Shown here one piece after another: positions 9,628 through 59,092 of a stretch of DNA of 59,092 nt. The translations under genes and the position numbers were made by a program. The notes beneath the pieces were generated by a model that was not told the DNA's origin, made no database searches, and worked only from the letters and a program-made list of their open reading frames with translations. Position 1 is the first letter of the stretch. Every line of letters starts with the position of its first letter. Source of the stretch: Candidatus Dadabacteria bacterium (GTDB lineage: Bacteria > Desulfobacterota_D > UBA1144 > Nemesobacterales > Nemesobacteraceae); assembly GCA_007571325.1 (NCBI GenBank), contig RKRQ01000072.1, positions 1-59,092 of the forward strand, written 5' to 3'.

Positions 9628-11162
9628 TGGAGAGAGTTTTGAGATATCTTAAGGGGTTTTATTATATAAGGAAAAGTAATTGCTGCGGTACATCGCCAGA
9701 TGTAGGATCACCCTTTACATGGGTACGAAACATATCGACATGGCGTTACCGGTCACGCCGCCGGCTTTTTTCACCTGAATCCCGTCTCTCTATTATTTCA
9801 CTTACGATCTTAACTCTTGTCATTACCCTGATCTGTTTTCTTTCAGGCTCCCCAGCTCTCGCAGAAGAAGAGTGTGGTGAATACATAGAGCACGGTGGCG
9901 GAACCATCACCTGCGATGCAAGTACCTACAATGGTGATGGTGGCATTGAGTACGTCCTGGGCAACGGCGACTGGATCATCAACCTTGAGGACGATCTTAA
10001 CGTTAATACCGAAGCTACGGAAGACCACGCACTCCGTATATCTCAGGCCGGCGCCGGCAGTCTCACCATCAATATGTTAGGTGCCAGTCTCACCACCGAA
10101 GGCACTAGTGCCCATAGCATCAACGTTACTACCCAATACGGCGGCCTCGTCAAGATCAAAATGTCCGGCGGGGAAATAAAAACCAGCGGATCTAATGCCT
10201 ACGGTATTAGGGTAAAATCCTTCAATAATGAGAATATCAACATTGAAGTTGTGGACAACGACGAAAACTCCGAAACATCCATCACCACCTTGGGAATCAA
10301 CGCCCATGCAATCTACGCACGACACTACCTCTCAGGAAATATAAATATCGACCTAGACGGTGCCAATATCAAAGCCAGCGGCAACCAGTCTTATGCGGTT
10401 TATGCAGACCACGATGGGACCGGTGGTGTGACTATCGGAGTTGGCGGTCACTTAGTGTCAGGTGGAAACACACTGGTCATCTCCAACAGATCGACTTCAC
10501 CGGCCACAATCACGCTTGAGTCCGCAATCATCCAGGCGGGCGCTGACAGGAAGGCAATCATCACCGCCTCAAGCGACGATTCCCTGAAAGTGACAGGCGG
10601 TTCGAACAAAATAACCGGTGAAATAAATTTAGGTGCTGGTATGAACACCATGACCTTTGAGGCGGGTGATCTGTACCTGAACGGTCATCTTAATCTCGGC
10701 GGCTCCGGGGAGTTTACCATTAATGATGGTTCACGGCTGATCTTCGGGACCGCCGGCGACGAATACGGTCGTATCACCGCCAGCCAGATGAGCTTCAGCA
10801 CCCTGGACCGGGACCGGCAAAAGCTGTTCGTTGCGGATGGCTCCCTTACAGTGCTGGACGGCAAGGATGTACTGGTGAATGAGGATGGTAGATTCCAAGA
10901 CAATAACGGAAACACTGTCGAACCGAAGCTCTACAATGAGAACGAGGAAGAGGTCGGTTCCATAACCGAAAACGGCATAGTAAGTAGCAATCCCCCTGGT
11001 GACGGTGGTGACCCCCCTGGTGACGGTAGCGGTGGCTGCAGCATCGGCAGTGGCGACAGCGACAACGGCAGCATTGCCACGGTGGGCTTATTGTTGCTCC
11101 TGTGCGGTCTGATACTGTTCCTCAAGACTGAGAGGAAGATGAAGAGAGCAAGAGTGTCCTAA
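9628..11162 (+). CDS. secreted surface protein: signal peptide, autotransporter-passenger-like beta-helix repeats, Pro/Gly linker, C-terminal GGC-TM-basic (CTERM-like) anchor
   Basis: GGAGG RBS before ATG9628 (track start 9582 is TTG); hydrophobic segment ending SPALA-EE; five ~29-aa T.G..A(H/Y).I repeats; ends SGGCSIG..IATVGLLLLLCGLILFLKTERKMKR. Confidence 0.75.
10868..10984 (+). repeat. dispersed inverted repeat copy A (117 nt; partner 58976-59092)
   Basis: Manual alignment to the reverse complement of 58976-59092 gives 114/117 identical. Confidence 0.95.
10992..11027 (+). repeat. tandem direct repeat encoding PPGDG-GD-PPGDG linker
   Basis: CCCCCTGGTGACGGT at 10992-11006 and 11013-11027 (21-nt period). 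Confidence 0.9.
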
Positions 11163-16839: not shown

Positions 16840-17784
16840 ATGAATACGGTCATTATAGCAGTTGGTTCAAATATAGATGCCGAGAGCAACATAAACGTTG
16901 CAAAGCGAATGCTTAGTGAAAAACTCATCGTTTTAGCAGAGTCGAAATTCGTAAGAACTAAACCCATAGGGTATCAAGAGCAGCAGGATTTTTTAAATGG
17001 TTCCTTGCTGATAAAAACCCGTCTTGGCGCCAAGCGTCTGAAGAAACTGCTTAAAGGTGTGGAAATTTCTCTTGGAAGGGATATGGAGGAGGATCGTTAC
17101 GGACCGAGAAAAATGGACTTGGATATAGTTGTTTGGAATGGAGAGATAGTTGATTCTGACGTTTACAGAAGGGAATTTCTTCGCCGTTCCATTGTTGAAC
17201 TTTGTCCTGAACTTGAAAAAAAACTGAAAGATAAACAGGACTTCCCTGACGAAGCTGAAATCCCAGAAGAGATCGTGCTTACGAAGCTTTTCTCAAAGAA
17301 CGATATAAAAAACGCCATTAGCAAACTAGCCAAGCAAATTTCTATAGACTATGAAGGAAGAAATCCTGTTTTAGTCTGCGTTTTGCTGGGAGCACGACCA
17401 TTTTTTGAGGATCTCTCAGAGCATATAACCGTAAAGATAGAACAACGGTTCCTAAGAATTTCAAGTTATAAACATGCGACGCGCCCCGGACCCGCTGAGC
17501 TTTTAATGGACATTGAGTGCGAATTGGAAGGTAGGGATGTTGTAATCGTTGAGGATGTAATTGAAACTTCAAAGACGATGAAGTTTATCCTGCGGCAAAT
17601 GGAATCAAAGAACCCAAGCTCAGTTCGTGTATGCGCGCTTATAGATAAAAGGGGAAAAGATGCAACAGGTTTGGGACCTGATTACATGGGTTTTCAAGTG
17701 GATACAGGATTTCTTGTGGGTTACGGAATGGACTACATGGACAAGGGAAGAAACCTTGAGGACATATATTTGCTCCGGGGGTGA
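16840..17784 (+). CDS. fusion: HPPK (FolK, aa 1-~125) + hypoxanthine phosphoribosyltransferase-like domain (aa ~146-314)
   Basis: AVGSNI, QQDFLN, RYGPRKMDLDI (FolK); then VLVCVLLGA, ISSY, VIVEDVIETSKT, FLVGYGMDY (HPRT); one continuous ORF. Confidence 0.88.
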   Translation: MNTVIIAVGSNIDAESNINVAKRMLSEKLIVLAESKFVRTKPIGYQEQQDFLNGSLLIKTRLGAKRLKKLLKGVEISLGRDMEEDRYGPRKMDLDIVVWNGEIVDSDVYRREFLRRSIVELCPELEKKLKDKQDFPDEAEIPEEIVLTKLFSKNDIKNAISKLAKQISIDYEGRNPVLVCVLLGARPFFEDLSEHITVKIEQRFLRISSYKHATRPGPAELLMDIECELEGRDVVIVEDVIETSKTMKFILRQMESKNPSSVRVCALIDKRGKDATGLGPDYMGFQVDTGFLVGYGMDYMDKGRNLEDIYLLRG

Positions 17785-17815: not shown

Positions 17816-19621
17816 GTGAATATGGAAAAAGCAGAAAATATTAAGTGGAATCTCGGAGACCTTTACGAAGGAACTTCAGATGTTCGCGTGGAAAAGGATT
17901 TAAAGAGAATATCAGCCAATGCCGATAGATTTGAGAAAAAATACAGGGGCAGGATAAAATCTCTTTCTCTTACAGCAACTGAGCTTGCCGGGTCTGTAAG
18001 GGAACTTGAGCGCTTATCGGAAGGAATTGGGAAAATCCTTTCCTTTGCATATCTTCTTTTTGCATCCGATACGCAGGACCCGGAAAACGGAGCCTTTCGT
18101 TCGTCGATGCAACAGAAATCAACTGAACTCGAGAAAAAACTTATCTTTTTTTACGTTGAATGGGTTTCAGTTCCAGAAAGAAGAGCTAAGAAGCTGATGA
18201 ACTCTCCGGAACTCTCTGAGTACAGGCATTTTCTAGAGCAGGAAAGGCAGTATAAAGACCACACTCTTTCAGAAGCTGAGGAGAAGATACTTCAGGAAAA
18301 ATCAAACACGGGGCAGGAAGCGTTTTCAAGGCTTTTCGATGAGGTTGTGAACAATATACAGTTTCGGGTGAGACTTTCTGGCAAGACCGAAAAACTTACG
18401 CAGTCCCATACCCTGTCGCTTCTTTATGACCCGGACAGAAAAAAAAGAAAGGCGGCATGGTCCGGTCTTAGCAGAGGACTTATGGACAATTCCCATGTTC
18501 TTACATACATATTCAATACGCTTGTGAATGACCATTCGATAAATGACAGGTTGAGGAGTTATGAGAATCCTATGTCAGCTCGACACCTTAGCAACGAGAT
18601 ATCCCAGAGAGCAGTTGAAACTCTTCTTGAATCTTGCGAGAGTAAATTTGGATTTGTAAGGCGTTACTACTTGATTAAAAGAAAACTTCTTGGATATCGA
18701 AAATTCTACGACTACGACCGCTACGTTCCGCTGGGCTCGGAAAGGGAGCAGGTGCCGTGGGAAAAAGCAAAGGAGATAGTTCTTTCTTCATTCGGAGGAT
18801 TTTCCTCTGAAATGGAAAAGACCGCATCTTTATTTTTTGAAAAAAACTGGATAGATGCCGAGCTTAGGCCTGGAAAAAGAGGAGGAGCTTTCAGCCACGG
18901 CACCGTTCCCGGAGTCCATCCTTACGTATTTATGAATTACACTGGAAAACCTAGAGACGTAATGGTTTTGGCCCACGAGCTCGGTCACGGGGTGCATCAA
19001 TATCTCTCAAAAGGCCAAGGTTATCTGCAGGCCCATACTCCTCTTACTACGGCCGAAACCGCAAGCGTTTTCGCGGAGATGCTAGTGTTTCATAGGTTAA
19101 AGGAGAAAGAAAAGGAGAAGGAAAAAAGACTCATTTTGGTGGCGGAAAAACTAGAGGACATAATGGCTACCGTTTTTAGACAGGTAGTACTTACGAGGTT
19201 TGAGCAGAACATTCATAATGAAAGAAGACGCAAAGGAGAACTCACAACTGCTAGGATCAACGAATTTTGGGTTGAAGCTAACAGGGAGATGTTCGGAGAT
19301 TCTGTCTTTCTTACCGAAAATTACTCCTACTGGTGGCTCTATATCCCCCATTTTATACACTCTCCCTTCTACTGCTACGCTTACTCTTTCGGGGAACTGC
19401 TCACCTTGGCTCTTTATGGAATTTTTCTTGAGCGGGGGAAATCTTTTGTTCCTGATTACATGAGGCTTCTTCGCTCGGGTGGTAGTGCCTCACCCGCCGA
19501 GCTTCTGTTAAGACTGGGGGTGGATATAAACGAACCAGATTTTTGGAGCTCTGGACTTGGTGTAATAGGTGCAATGGTAGACGAAGTGGAAGAACTGGCG
19601 GAGCAGTCCGGTTTTTTCTGA
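17816..19621 (+). CDS. pepF: oligoendopeptidase F (M3B)
   Basis: WNLGDLY, GKRGGAFS, LAHELGHGVH zincin motif, ETAS, PHFIHSPFYCYAY. Confidence 0.92.
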   Translation: MNMEKAENIKWNLGDLYEGTSDVRVEKDLKRISANADRFEKKYRGRIKSLSLTATELAGSVRELERLSEGIGKILSFAYLLFASDTQDPENGAFRSSMQQKSTELEKKLIFFYVEWVSVPERRAKKLMNSPELSEYRHFLEQERQYKDHTLSEAEEKILQEKSNTGQEAFSRLFDEVVNNIQFRVRLSGKTEKLTQSHTLSLLYDPDRKKRKAAWSGLSRGLMDNSHVLTYIFNTLVNDHSINDRLRSYENPMSARHLSNEISQRAVETLLESCESKFGFVRRYYLIKRKLLGYRKFYDYDRYVPLGSEREQVPWEKAKEIVLSSFGGFSSEMEKTASLFFEKNWIDAELRPGKRGGAFSHGTVPGVHPYVFMNYTGKPRDVMVLAHELGHGVHQYLSKGQGYLQAHTPLTTAETASVFAEMLVFHRLKEKEKEKEKRLILVAEKLEDIMATVFRQVVLTRFEQNIHNERRRKGELTTARINEFWVEANREMFGDSVFLTENYSYWWLYIPHFIHSPFYCYAYSFGELLTLALYGIFLERGKSFVPDYMRLLRSGGSASPAELLLRLGVDINEPDFWSSGLGVIGAMVDEVEELAEQSGFF

Positions 19622-19627
19622 GGGATT

Positions 19628-20470
19628 TTACTGCAAATGGGAATAGCTTTTCTCGTACTTACTCACAATCTTACTTACAACGGAATAATGAACGGACACT
19701 GCGGCTGCAACCTCTTTTAGGGTGTAGTTCCCTGTCAGGTAGGTTTTTGCTATTGCCTCATCCATTGAATGTCCGCTTTGGATTAAGCCGTTTATTATGC
19801 TTGATACAGGTTTTGTGATCTGATACTTGGGAATACCTTCTGACCACGAACCTTTTATTTTTTTCTGTACAAACTCTATGAATTTGTCGTCGCCTAGGTA
19901 TATCTGCTTTCGGACCTCAGAGAGTAAGTCACGCAAAAGATTTTTGTCTAAAAATTTATCAAATCTGTCTGTGTCAGAAGAGAAGCCTTTGGAGAACCAG
20001 TCAAGGTTTATGTAGCTAGGCCTTTCATTTTTTCCATAAAGGTATCTGCAGGTACTCCATTTGAACTGGTTCGGGAGTTTTACAAAACCGGCTCTAAGCG
20101 GGAGAAGAAAGATATGAGCCAGAAGAGGGAGAAGATATTTTTCCCTCTGAACAACTATAGATTTATATCTTCCCCGGAAAACATGTCCATCCGTGTGATG
20201 CAATCTGTTTGAACTTTGGGTGTAAACGCCGTTTAACTGACGTATAGATTTTGAGAGATTTGGTTTTGGGGTCTCTATGACAAGATGATATCCATCAGGC
20301 ATAAGGCAGTAGGCGAGGCAGTTACAGGTAAATCTTCTGCATACACCCTCAAGGATATCTATCCAAGCATTGCCGTCCGCAGAGTTTTGAAAAACGCTCT
20401 GTCCCCTGTTTCCTTTGGAAGAAATATAGTATACTGCCCCAGCATATTCTGGTCTTAAAGGTCTCGCCAT
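19628..20470 (-). CDS. REP-associated tyrosine transposase (RAYT, Y1_Tnp)-like protein with C-terminal HTH; catalytic residues degenerate
   Basis: MARPLRPEYAGAVYYISSKGN, YCLMPDGYHL, GHVFRGRYKS, C-terminal YTLKEVA..VHYSVVSKIV; ATG20470 preferred over the track start 20542. Confidence 0.85.
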   Translation of the reverse strand: MARPLRPEYAGAVYYISSKGNRGQSVFQNSADGNAWIDILEGVCRRFTCNCLAYCLMPDGYHLVIETPKPNLSKSIRQLNGVYTQSSNRLHHTDGHVFRGRYKSIVVQREKYLLPLLAHIFLLPLRAGFVKLPNQFKWSTCRYLYGKNERPSYINLDWFSKGFSSDTDRFDKFLDKNLLRDLLSEVRKQIYLGDDKFIEFVQKKIKGSWSEGIPKYQITKPVSSIINGLIQSGHSMDEAIAKTYLTGNYTLKEVAAAVSVHYSVVSKIVSKYEKSYSHLQ

Positions 20471-20881
20471 AAAAGGATTATAAAGAAATTGGGAAATTAT
20501 TTCAAGACCTGACCCTGACCCTTGTAATGTCTCAAAACTCAAGAGCCGTGATGATAAACGTCAAATTTTCTCTTGATGGTTTGTAGGGAAACACTGAAAC
20601 GGGAAGACAGAAAATATCTCTAACTGAGGTTTCTCACAAATCAGGTGTTTGCTAAGTATAGTATACTATTGACCAATTTATTATAGTCTGCCTAGCGCAT
20701 TTAGGTTAAGTGACTTAAAAAAATAATGAATACAATTGTGAAAATTAAAAAACTGTTTTAACTTTGGGGTCCACCTCTCTCCGTCTTTTTAAATGGAAGC
20801 AGGTCTCAAACAATTTTTGAGATTTATCTTCTTCCATTCCCTAACCCAGGAATTACTCAATTCTAAACTGCACTCAATGGC

Positions 20882-21583
20882 TTAACTCTTCTCCCCTACG
20901 ACAAAATGCTTTACTCCATCCAAAGAACTTATTATTACGTCGCTTACAGTTTCCAAGAAAAGACCGTGCTCAACTATACCGGCCCTTTTTGACAACTGGT
21001 CGGCAAGATAGAACGGGTCCTCTATCTCCCCGCAATACCAGTCAATGATAAGATTATTCTGATCGGTCAAAAAGGGAGAACCATCCCCCACGAGTCGTAA
21101 TCTCACTTCTCCGCCAAAACCCTCTAGATAGCTTTTTTGGGCTTCAAAAGCAAACTTAAATACCTCCACCGGAATTGGAAAACGGCTGCCAAGCCGCTGC
21201 GAGAGTTTAGAGTCATCGGCCACGATTATATTTCTTTCGCTGTTCTGAGCAAGCACTTTTTCTCTCAATAGAGCGCCTCCTCCCCCTTTTATAAGATTGA
21301 AATCAGAGTCAATCTCATCCGCCCCATCAATAGTCACATCGATTCTTCTTTCTGAGCTAAGCTCAACAATGTTGAGACCTAGACCCTCCGCAAACATCCT
21401 TGTTCTCTCCGAACTTGGGACACAGGATATTTCAGAGAGTCGACCGTCTTTTATGCGATTGTAAAGTTCTTCCACAGCAAACTCGGCAGTTGACCCAGTC
21501 CCCAGTCCGACCAGCATACCGGTGCAAACGAAGTCGATAGCTTCTATGCCTGCGGCTTTTTTAAGTTCTTCGGTTTTATTCAT
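20882..21583 (-). CDS. rpiA: ribose-5-phosphate isomerase A
   Basis: GLGTGSTA, IDGADE, IKGGGGALLREK, GIVEHGLF. Confidence 0.97.
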   Translation of the reverse strand: MNKTEELKKAAGIEAIDFVCTGMLVGLGTGSTAEFAVEELYNRIKDGRLSEISCVPSSERTRMFAEGLGLNIVELSSERRIDVTIDGADEIDSDFNLIKGGGGALLREKVLAQNSERNIIVADDSKLSQRLGSRFPIPVEVFKFAFEAQKSYLEGFGGEVRLRLVGDGSPFLTDQNNLIIDWYCGEIEDPFYLADQLSKRAGIVEHGLFLETVSDVIISSLDGVKHFVVGEKS

Positions 21584-58755: not shown

Positions 58756-59092
58756 TTAGCTTTTTCCTCGTCTTTTCACCAGTCTTGAGGAAAGAAGCAG
58801 GACGCATAGGAACAGGAGCAAGCCCACAGTGGCAATGCTGCCGTTGCTGCTGTCGCCACCGCCAATGTTACAACCACCGCTGCCTGTGTTGCTTGGATCA
58901 GGATCGGGATCAGGGTCAGGATCGGGATCAGGATCAGGACCGGGGTCAGGATCAGGACCGGGGTCAGGATCGGCGCTTACTATGCCGTTTTCGGTTATGG
59001 AGCCGACCTCTTCCTCGTCCTCATTGTAGAGCTTCGGTTCGACAGTGTCTCCGTTATTGTCTTGGAATCTACCATCCTCATTCACCAGTACA
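58756..59092 (-). CDS. C-terminal part (5'-truncated by the window edge) of a paralog of the 9628-11162 surface protein
   Basis: Frame open to 59092; VLVNEDGRFQDNNGDTVEPKLYNE.., (D/G)P linker, GSGGCNIG..IATVGLLLFLCVLLL..KRRGKS. Confidence 0.9.
   Translation of the reverse strand, partial: VLVNEDGRFQDNNGDTVEPKLYNEDEEEVGSITENGIVSADPDPGPDPDPGPDPDPDPDPDPDPDPSNTGSGGCNIGGGDSSNGSIATVGLLLFLCVLLLSSRLVKRRGKS
58895..58972 (-). repeat. 13 x 6-nt tandem repeat encoding (D/G)P linker
   Basis: Units GGATCA/GGATCG/GGGTCA/GGACCG; exact 18-nt duplication at 58931-58948 and 58949-58966. Confidence 0.95.
58976..59092 (-). repeat. dispersed inverted repeat copy B (partner 10868-10984; may extend beyond the window)
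   Basis: 114/117 identical to 10868-10984 in reverse complement. Confidence 0.95.

Follow-up and report, generated by a model that had tools for sequence, protein, structure and literature searches.

What function is left to a transposase that has kept its reading frame and lost its active site? This question is raised by a gene carried by contig RKRQ01000072.1 of a sponge-symbiont Candidatus Dadabacteria bacterium, whose 59,092 nucleotides were analysed as a whole and are called the window below. An earlier reading of this DNA, made from its letters alone (hereafter, the original prediction), had described at positions 19628-20470 an intact open reading frame (ORF) of 280 codons encoding a catalytically dead Y1/HUH transposase of the RAYT type. 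The ORF is indeed intact and lies on the minus strand, which had not been stated. The analysis reported here points, with a probability of about 0.7, to an exapted and non-catalytic DNA-binding protein that derives from a TIRtron, a transposon of which only one half is left at this locus, and that would still recognise the ancestral transposon end.

The first step is to ask whether the active site is really lost. An exhaustive homolog search gave 21,707 clusters at 50% identity (E <= 1e-3), and 194 relatives were aligned. In this alignment, 108 sequences sharing 36-45% identity with the query are canonical, i.e., invariant for the motifs Y-H, R-G-N/D, H-Y-H, Y and N-P, while all the sequences with at least about 46% identity to the query are degenerate at the catalytic positions. 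The residues of the window's gene were checked codon by codon and the initial calls (G60-Y61-H62, H119-I-F-L-L-P and KGN for RGN) proved exact. An HUH motif with its two metal-binding histidines is not found, G60-Y61-H62 standing where the canonical relatives have an invariant H-Y-H. In the same way, the tyrosine nucleophile and the asparagine or glutamine expected four residues further on in helix alpha-D are replaced by H119 and L123. The active site of the E. coli TnpA-REP includes H59, H61, Y115 and N119, plus H123 and E161 (PMC3479197). A profile alignment with the structure of this protein (4er8), a comparison that had been recommended with the original prediction, puts residues 119 and 123 opposite Y115 and N119, and the catalytic residues are again found to be lost.

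These positions were also compared among relatives. The six residues H15, R19, H60, H62, Y119 and N123 are invariant in the 108 canonical relatives, and the conservation of H15 and R19 falls from 100% in these proteins to 0% in the clade of dead proteins that includes the query. Among 43 non-redundant members of this clade, variation follows lineages, with G/R/H/E/D/C at position 60 and H/Y/E/Q/F/D at position 119. Its inner sub-lineages show G/R/E/D/C/S/K/Y/I at position 60, H/M/E/L/Y/Q at position 62, H/E/Q/D/Y/F at position 119 and L/F/I/V/S/C/R/K/M at position 123. A site-wise comparison reveals that the canonical invariants released in the dead clade are H15, T17, R19, N59, H60, Q99, R118, Y119, V121 and N123, six of which are known catalytic-motif positions, the other four being directly beside them in sequence. 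About 30 further invariants are common to the dead and canonical groups, among which R77-Q78-L79-N80-G81, Q85, N88, G95-H96 and G100-R101, as well as W138, Q189, L192-G193, F197 and H261. Such a selective release of catalytic positions is what one would expect of a protein that gave up catalysis but whose fold and other surfaces were still under selection. Since the nucleophile has disappeared together with two of the three metal ligands, and since the syntenic orthologs have no replacement residue in common, the protein is most likely unable to cleave or join DNA.

It could be objected that the protein is still an enzyme, in which H119, H62 or other residues would form an altered site, either that of a hydrolytic nuclease or one using a histidine as nucleophile. 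All of the core Dadabacteria group has a histidine at the tyrosine position, and the same Tyr-to-His change is found in 15 representatives of the family, with at least six origins on well-supported branches, most of these proteins having an intact HUH motif and asparagine. Furthermore, no other part of the protein is as constrained as the HUH domain. However, not only two metal ligands (now G60 and L123) are missing from the window's protein but also the shell residues H15, R19, Q99 and R118, and the syntenic orthologs, with H/E/Q/D/Y at position 119 and G/R/E/D/C/S at position 60, have no clade-wide replacement catalytic residue. To our knowledge, no HUH enzyme with a histidine nucleophile has been described. 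A chemistry based on His119 is therefore unlikely for the window's protein, though conceivable in the wider family, where Tyr-to-His with an intact HUH and asparagine recurs many times, and we regard a persisting enzymatic activity of any kind as highly improbable.

Loss of the active site did not entail loss of the fold. Pfam PF01797 (Y1_Tnp) matches residues 25-109 with 32.5 bits, for a gathering cutoff of 23. As a search of the PDB with the single protein sequence returned spurious matches only, and a search with the family profile returned weak matches to helix-turn-helix (HTH) proteins and to 4er8, a structure-based search was needed. The AlphaFold2 model, built from 34 homologs with a mean predicted local distance difference test score (pLDDT) of 84.8, retains an HUH-type fold. 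Its best Foldseek match is the E. coli TnpA-REP with its REP hairpin (4er8_A; target-normalised template modelling (TM) score 0.76; E 1.4e-7). The top 30 matches are all Y1 transposases and, besides 4er8_A, the significant ones are IS200/IS605 transposases. The helix 72-91 and the strand 95-101 are conserved and kept in dead and canonical members. The C-terminal HTH domain is modelled as helices 222-231, 236-245, 251-258 and 262-279. HTH_23 and Sigma54_DBD give weak matches in the query, while, of 34 aligned family members, 13 match HTH_23 and 10 match HTH_28. The probable recognition helix, H261-Y-S-x-V-S, is common to the query and the canonical members.

Does this dead protein matter to its host, or was it caught in the course of its decay? 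In a maximum-likelihood tree, the degenerate sequences close to the query form a single clade (44 rows, SH-aLRT 99), whose basal members (P0065 and P0068) retain HYH, Y and N and have F instead of H15. One genome per species was scanned for orthologs. Intact ones, of 279-282 amino acids and all beginning with MARPLR, were found in at least 15 Dadabacteria-type species-level genomes, labelled Thermodesulfobacteriota or Ca. Dadabacteria. Each dead-clade genome was seen once among the best 80 genome matches, and no second, canonical copy was found for any of them among these matches.

The orthologs occupy a fixed chromosomal position. The usual order is acyl-CoA dehydrogenase <- luciferase-like monooxygenase -> gene -> <- pepF <- phosphoribosyltransferase (PRT) <- HPPK, and the neighbourhood made of pepF and HPPK/PRT recurs in over 20 loci, even where identity is as low as 48%. 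In the window, the pepF and HPPK-PRT side is kept, and rpiA, a CBS-domain gene and a sulfite reductase gene are found upstream. Two loci with 48-50% identity (L020 and L022) have the arrangement sir-CBS-gene-pepF-HPPK in common with the window, and a protein with 56% identity (P0044) is encoded between the monooxygenase and pepF-PRT-HPPK-FolB. The identity of this protein across genomes tracks that of PepF (79/84, 66/77, 61/76, 63/74 and 48/59%), as expected for vertical descent. In one Dadabacteria sub-lineage, a UvrD-type SF1 helicase gene lies between the ortholog and HPPK/PRT/pepF, on the ortholog's strand (L004:6260-8116, L005:6262-8124 and L019:7260-9113). HUH proteins often operate with helicases.

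Neither frameshift nor stop codon was found in more than 20 orthologs, spanning saturated synonymous divergence: in pairwise Nei-Gojobori (NG86) estimates, dS is undefined between the window and L004, L005 and L017, the most divergent orthologs tested. At dS of 0.15-0.6, the dN/dS ratio is 0.07-0.2. It is lowest in residues 1-140, with 0.04-0.15 in nearly all pairs and 0.23 in one pair, and reaches about 0.1-0.3 in the middle region and the HTH domain. In four sponge metagenomes, the gene is intact and shows a single synonymous single nucleotide polymorphism. On these data, the decay of a recent insertion is excluded. A neutral relic, i.e., an immobilised transposase in slow and functionless decay, would account for the loss of catalytic residues and of one terminal repeat (see below), but hardly for so many uninterrupted orthologs, for the low dN/dS, for an invariant promoter and repeat core or for a synteny kept down to 48% identity, and we give it next to no credit. 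The orthologs thus have the fixed position and the intact ORF under purifying selection that are expected from an exapted transposase. The original prediction had taken active-site losses in an intact ORF as a sign of selection for a non-catalytic role, had recommended checks of synteny, dN/dS and predicted structure, and had named absent or pseudogenised orthologs as what would contradict it. Intact syntenic orthologs, low dN/dS and a retained fold all agree with that proposal.

If the protein descends from a transposase, from which one? Proteins combining a Y1 domain with a C-terminal Bac_DnaA_C, HTH_23 or HTH_28 domain constitute the TnpA-REP-like subclass 2.1, which has no REPs nearby (PMC6006769, Quentin et al. 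2018). TIRYTs are the transposases of TIRtrons, elements delimited by inverted repeats that contain the motif GGGGWSAS (PMC3733652, Di Nocera et al. 2013). Subclass 2.1 and the TIRYTs are largely the same set, and both studies state that HUH and the catalytic tyrosine are conserved in all members (PMC6006769, PMC3733652). The window's protein aligns over its full length, about 280 amino acids, with this family, with the same Y1 domain beginning with MARPLR, the same helical middle and the same C-terminal HTH. Its closest catalytically intact relatives, 37-43% identical, are TIRtrons, i.e., TIRYT genes between GGGGTCAGGTCTTG inverted repeats, which carry the published motif (GGGGTCAG). Paired GGGGTCAGGTCTTG repeats were found in roughly half of the tested canonical loci with enough flanking sequence, with a left arm that precedes the ATG by 20-55 nt and a right arm directly after the stop codon, and several genomes hold two canonical copies. 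From these repeat pairs and multiple copies, the canonical relatives look like mobile TIRtrons. Canonical TIRtrons (L033, L041, L045 and L080) often have two or three direct copies of the repeat core at their left end, about 23-25 nt apart. Additional solo or paired cores occur near canonical TIRtrons, with up to 13 matches (<=2 mismatches) per 12-kb locus, which suggests derivatives similar to miniature inverted-repeat transposable elements.

The protein type initially proposed, a Y1 domain followed by a C-terminal HTH, is therefore right, while the REP-associated (RAYT) kind is not, the protein belonging to TIRYT subclass 2.1. The RAYTs nevertheless provide the nearest structure, E. coli YafM (PDB 4ER8). 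They have been called the "first domesticated bacterial transposase" and, like the protein studied here, are housekeeping-like, vertically inherited and seen as one copy per genome (PMC5581495). However, RAYTs cleave REP hairpins with an active site that is intact, have REPs or REPINs on their flanks and are without the C-terminal HTH extension of about 140 amino acids, whereas the window's protein has no REPs. Accordingly, the score against the NCBIfam model REP_Tyr_transpos (NF047646) is 53 bits, below the equivalog cutoff of 80. The TnpA proteins of the IS200/IS605 family (IS608, ISDra2) share the Y1/HUH fold (Foldseek E 1e-5 to 1e-4), but they are active, obligate-dimer transposases of single-stranded DNA, of about 130-155 amino acids, which recognise subterminal hairpins and have no HTH. 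The NCBIfam model transpos_IS200 gives 14 bits for a cutoff of 55.

Compared with the TIRtrons themselves, the window's gene has lost not only HUH and the tyrosine but also H15, R19, Q99, R118 and N123. As a syntenic ortholog, it was seen a single time per genome, whereas TIRtrons are repeat-flanked and seen more than once per genome. It also lacks the right repeat, so that it is not bounded by paired terminal inverted repeats (TIRs). What it keeps is the core of the left repeat, at the equivalent place relative to the ATG. The published motif GGGGWSAS is too short to be informative, as 8 matches are observed in the window for 10.6 expected, and the core of 12-13 nt deduced from canonical loci was used instead. 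When the 110 nt upstream of all orthologs are aligned, all dead-clade loci prove to have the core GGGTCA[G/A]GTCTT, which has the orientation of the gene and starts 44-51 nt ahead of its ATG. The dead and canonical loci agree in twelve columns of the alignment. The core does not change in 20 aligned promoters, whose flanking positions vary. The dead-clade loci (the window, L001-L022 and L086-L089) have exactly one core each, upstream and on the gene strand, and the canonical loci usually at least two copies. A right arm could be seen neither in the window nor in the other dead-clade loci, and no inverted core occurs downstream. With a single left core and no right end, these loci are half-TIRtrons. 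In L006, L011, L012 and L016, a possible relic of the right arm, GGGGAAGGTCTT (2 mismatches), recurs about 180 nt downstream. It falls within the coding sequence of pepF, has no counterpart in the window and was treated as a chance match.

Why should one end have been kept and not the other? The left end of the window's gene overlaps a promoter (Table 1) that matches the sigma70 consensus at 11 of 12 positions, with a perfect -10 box, and whose -35 box overlaps the 3' end of the TIR core. The geometry is alike in all orthologs. As only 6 nt separate the -10 box from the ATG, there is no room for a Shine-Dalgarno sequence and the mRNA is probably leaderless. In one sponge metagenome, a population variant at window position 20472 adds a T to a T-run, the distance from the -10 box to the ATG being 7 instead of 6 nt, so that transcription could begin at another distance from the start codon. 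A longer form of the protein, of 304 amino acids and starting at TTG 20542, was discarded: it would span the promoter and the core, and this start is used by no ortholog. The left end would thus owe its retention to its role as the promoter and, very probably, as the binding site of the protein.

Table 1. Positions of the gene, its degenerate motifs, its domains and its upstream elements in the window
Feature	Position	Strand	Remarks
Coding sequence of the catalytically degenerate TIRYT-like protein, 280 aa	19628-20470	minus	ATG 20468-20470; TAA 19628-19630
Beta-1 motif Y14-Y15-I-S-S-K19-G20-N21	20408-20431	minus	Canonical Y-H-V-T-x-R-G-N/D; H15 and R19 lost
Degenerate HUH motif G60-Y61-H62	20285-20293	minus	Canonical H-Y-H; first metal-binding His lost
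Former catalytic helix H119-I-F-L-L123-P124	20099-20116	minus	Canonical Y-I/V-x-L-N-P; Tyr nucleophile and metal-ligand Asn lost
N-terminal Y1/HUH-fold domain, residues 1-140	20051-20470	minus	Most strongly constrained part
Middle helical region, residues 141-220	19811-20050	minus	Holds family-invariant Q189, L192, G193 and F197
C-terminal four-helix HTH domain, residues 221-280	19631-19810	minus	Probable recognition helix H261-Y-S-V-V-S-K-I-V
Left TIR core GGGTCAGGTCTTG, 12-13 nt, candidate binding site	20503-20515	minus	Sole match with <=2 mismatches in the 59-kb window
Extra half-site GGGTCA, tandem duplicate of the first half of the core	20516-20521	minus	Specific to this genome
Sigma70-type promoter	20477-20505	minus	-35 TTGAAA 20500-20505; 17-nt spacer; -10 TATAAT 20477-20482

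The nature of this upstream element also bears on the target that had been put forward first, a hairpin or single-stranded DNA. A dead HUH domain could act as a regulator by binding REP-like stem-loops in DNA or RNA elsewhere, all the more so as the HUH fold of TnpA-REP and of IS608 TnpA binds hairpins (PMC3479197) and as the helix 72-91 and the strand 95-101 are retained in dead and canonical members. However, neither a flanking hairpin nor a repeated palindrome of REP or REPIN type was found in the 59-kb window, and the conserved upstream core has no hairpin potential (folding z-score +0.93). An association with REPs or REPINs was rejected on these grounds, in agreement with the reported absence of REPs near members of subclass 2.1 (PMC6006769). 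The original prediction was right in seeing no REP array at the locus. The hairpin target that it proposed finds no support, the candidate target being instead the duplex TIR core at the gene's own promoter, and a regulator of this hairpin-binding kind appears quite improbable.

The preferred reading, that of an exapted reader of the transposon end, can be put as a succession of events. An ancestor of the Dadabacteria-like lineage would have acquired a TIRYT element, made of a Y1/HUH gene with a C-terminal HTH between GGGGTCAGGTCTTG repeats, which would have become fixed beside pepF and the HPPK/PRT genes. The right repeat would have been lost and then, lineage by lineage, H15, R19, the first histidine of HUH, Q99, R118, Tyr119 and Asn123. 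Immobilisation, with loss of H15 and of the right repeat, apparently preceded the decay of the active site. Selection would have kept the HUH fold, the middle helices, the HTH with its recognition helix and, at the gene's own promoter, the 12-nt left core. The protein would most likely be a sequence-specific DNA binder that still reads this core. Such binding is suggested by the recognition helix H261-Y-S-x-V-S, common to canonical members, and by a site that is unchanged across phyla. Being centred near -40 of its own promoter, it would lead to autoregulation. In many insertion sequences, the transposase promoter lies within the left end, which permits this kind of control. The benefit for the host would come from the same binding at other core-like sites of the genome or on the ends of incoming TIRtrons, the regulation of other sites and a defence against TIRtrons being non-exclusive options.

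Defence could also be the main function. The protein would then be a guardian that binds the ends of incoming active TIRtrons and blocks their transposition in a dominant-negative way, like the inhibitors of other elements that derive from truncated or inactive transposases, thereby protecting small symbiont genomes, and the binding to its own promoter would be a regulatory loop only. A role of this type had already been proposed in the original prediction. Active-looking TIRtrons, among them those of Gamma- and Betaproteobacteria and Nitrospira, have a core identical to the one kept in the Dadabacteria loci, so that the dead protein should still recognise foreign ends. The residues of its recognition helix are common to canonical members, and its hosts have no second, canonical copy among the best 80 genome matches. 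However, this lack of active copies rests on those matches, no sign was seen that TIRtrons invade these lineages, and the conservation of the site may merely reflect a constrained protein-DNA interface. As an account of the protein's main function, the guardian role is rather unlikely.

Several points weigh against an exapted binder of its own promoter. Self-regulation alone would not explain purifying selection, and further core sites were not found in the 59-kb window or in the ortholog flanks of about 12 kb, so that a regulon is not visible there. A search for transcript evidence found no RNA run containing the gene. The single copy per genome rests on the best 80 genome matches. H62 is retained and, with H119 common to the whole core Dadabacteria group and with the recurrence in the family of Tyr-to-His with an intact HUH, makes an altered chemistry formally possible. 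Lastly, the part of the protein that reads the core may be the HTH or the HUH domain.

The surroundings of the gene in the window call for a few remarks. As had been seen first, it is located between pepF (oligopeptidase F; 17816-19621, plus strand) and rpiA (20882-21583, minus strand). pepF is convergent with the gene, its last base being 6 nt from the gene's stop codon, while rpiA is upstream on the same strand. With a GC content of 41.4%, close to the 43.9% of the window, the gene appears compositionally ameliorated. The interval between rpiA and the promoter (20543-20881) is unusually long, about 340 nt, and AT-rich, whereas the upstream gap is mostly of about 65 nt in relatives. It contains a second promoter-like site (20680-20709, minus strand), and neither an ORF nor an Rfam match was found in it. 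The Rfam scan of the whole window detected three tRNAs only, with no match near the gene. HPPK (FolK) and the phosphoribosyltransferase are fused in one ORF of 314 amino acids (16840-17784), apparently also in L010 and L015, while most relatives have two adjacent or overlapping genes. Furthermore, a long inverted repeat relates positions 10868-11145 to positions 58765-59092 (126 nt at 94% and 92 nt at 79% identity), its second copy reaching the end of the window. The two loci probably are paralogous surface-protein genes with a Gly/Ser-rich repeat. Beside the second copy lies a tandem GGATCAGG/GGGTCAGG repeat (58895-58973), in which the likeness of the GGGTCAGG matches to the TIR core is coincidental.

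Is this an isolated case? Among the query and the 150 best representatives at 50% identity, 99 are canonical and about 50 degenerate, a share inflated by the ranking with a dead query. At least nine changes of the active/inactive label are required by a tree of 140 representatives, and in one weakly supported group of 50 rows, which includes the window's clade, 49 depart from the canonical six-residue signature. A second syntenic clade was also noticed, in which the only change is Tyr-to-His, HUH and the asparagine being intact (P0073 and P0084; L090:4001-4831 and L091:4001-4861). Its genes belong to another lineage and have a conserved housekeeping neighbourhood of their own (Crp-like, small ORF, gene, RNase T, Rrf2, ..., RecR, YbaB, DnaX), and the TIR core is absent on either side of the gene in both loci. 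This clade is apparently a second, independent domestication of the same family. Taken with the counts of degenerate members and the changes on the tree, it suggests that loss of catalysis with retention of the protein is a recurrent fate of TIRYTs.

Literature searches found no description of a catalytically dead Y1 or TIRYT protein. The closest parallels are the TldR proteins derived from TnpB (PMC10705468) and the transposase-derived inhibitors that bind insertion sequence ends. In these, as is predicted here, catalysis has been lost while target recognition was kept, and the protein was retained by the host. The TldR proteins differ in that they belong to another family, that the window's protein would read DNA by protein and not by RNA, and that the candidate target here is only the gene's own promoter. 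More tentatively, the TIRYT HUH transposases may have repeatedly given rise to a large and unrecognised family of HUH-pseudoenzyme DNA-binding proteins, transcription factors or guardians, that read GGGTCAGGTCTT-like sites at their own and other promoters, the Dadabacteria protein being one lineage-wide example. If so, this family would be a protein-guided bacterial counterpart of TldR, or of the transposase-derived factors of eukaryotes that bind dispersed TIR relics.

Members of the family (the set P0121-P0267) are annotated in their sources as "transposase", "RayT" or even "RelE toxin", and the number of degenerate ones suggests that current annotation mislabels many host proteins that are not transposases. 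Degenerate genes should not be counted as active transposases, either in annotation or in estimates of the mobile-element load of streamlined symbionts.

Domesticated Y1 transposases and TIRtrons are already known. Few bacterial transposases have been domesticated, and the textbook Y1 case, RAYT, keeps its catalytic centre. The evolutionary case made here, from a sponge-symbiont Dadabacteria bacterium, is a strong one. Its Y1/HUH transposase is without its catalytic residues and one of its ends and, as far as can be judged from sequence, without catalysis and mobility, but purifying selection has maintained the gene throughout the Dadabacteria-like lineages sampled. Its left transposon end survives as a promoter and probable operator, which makes the 280-amino-acid protein and the 12-nt core a testable pair.

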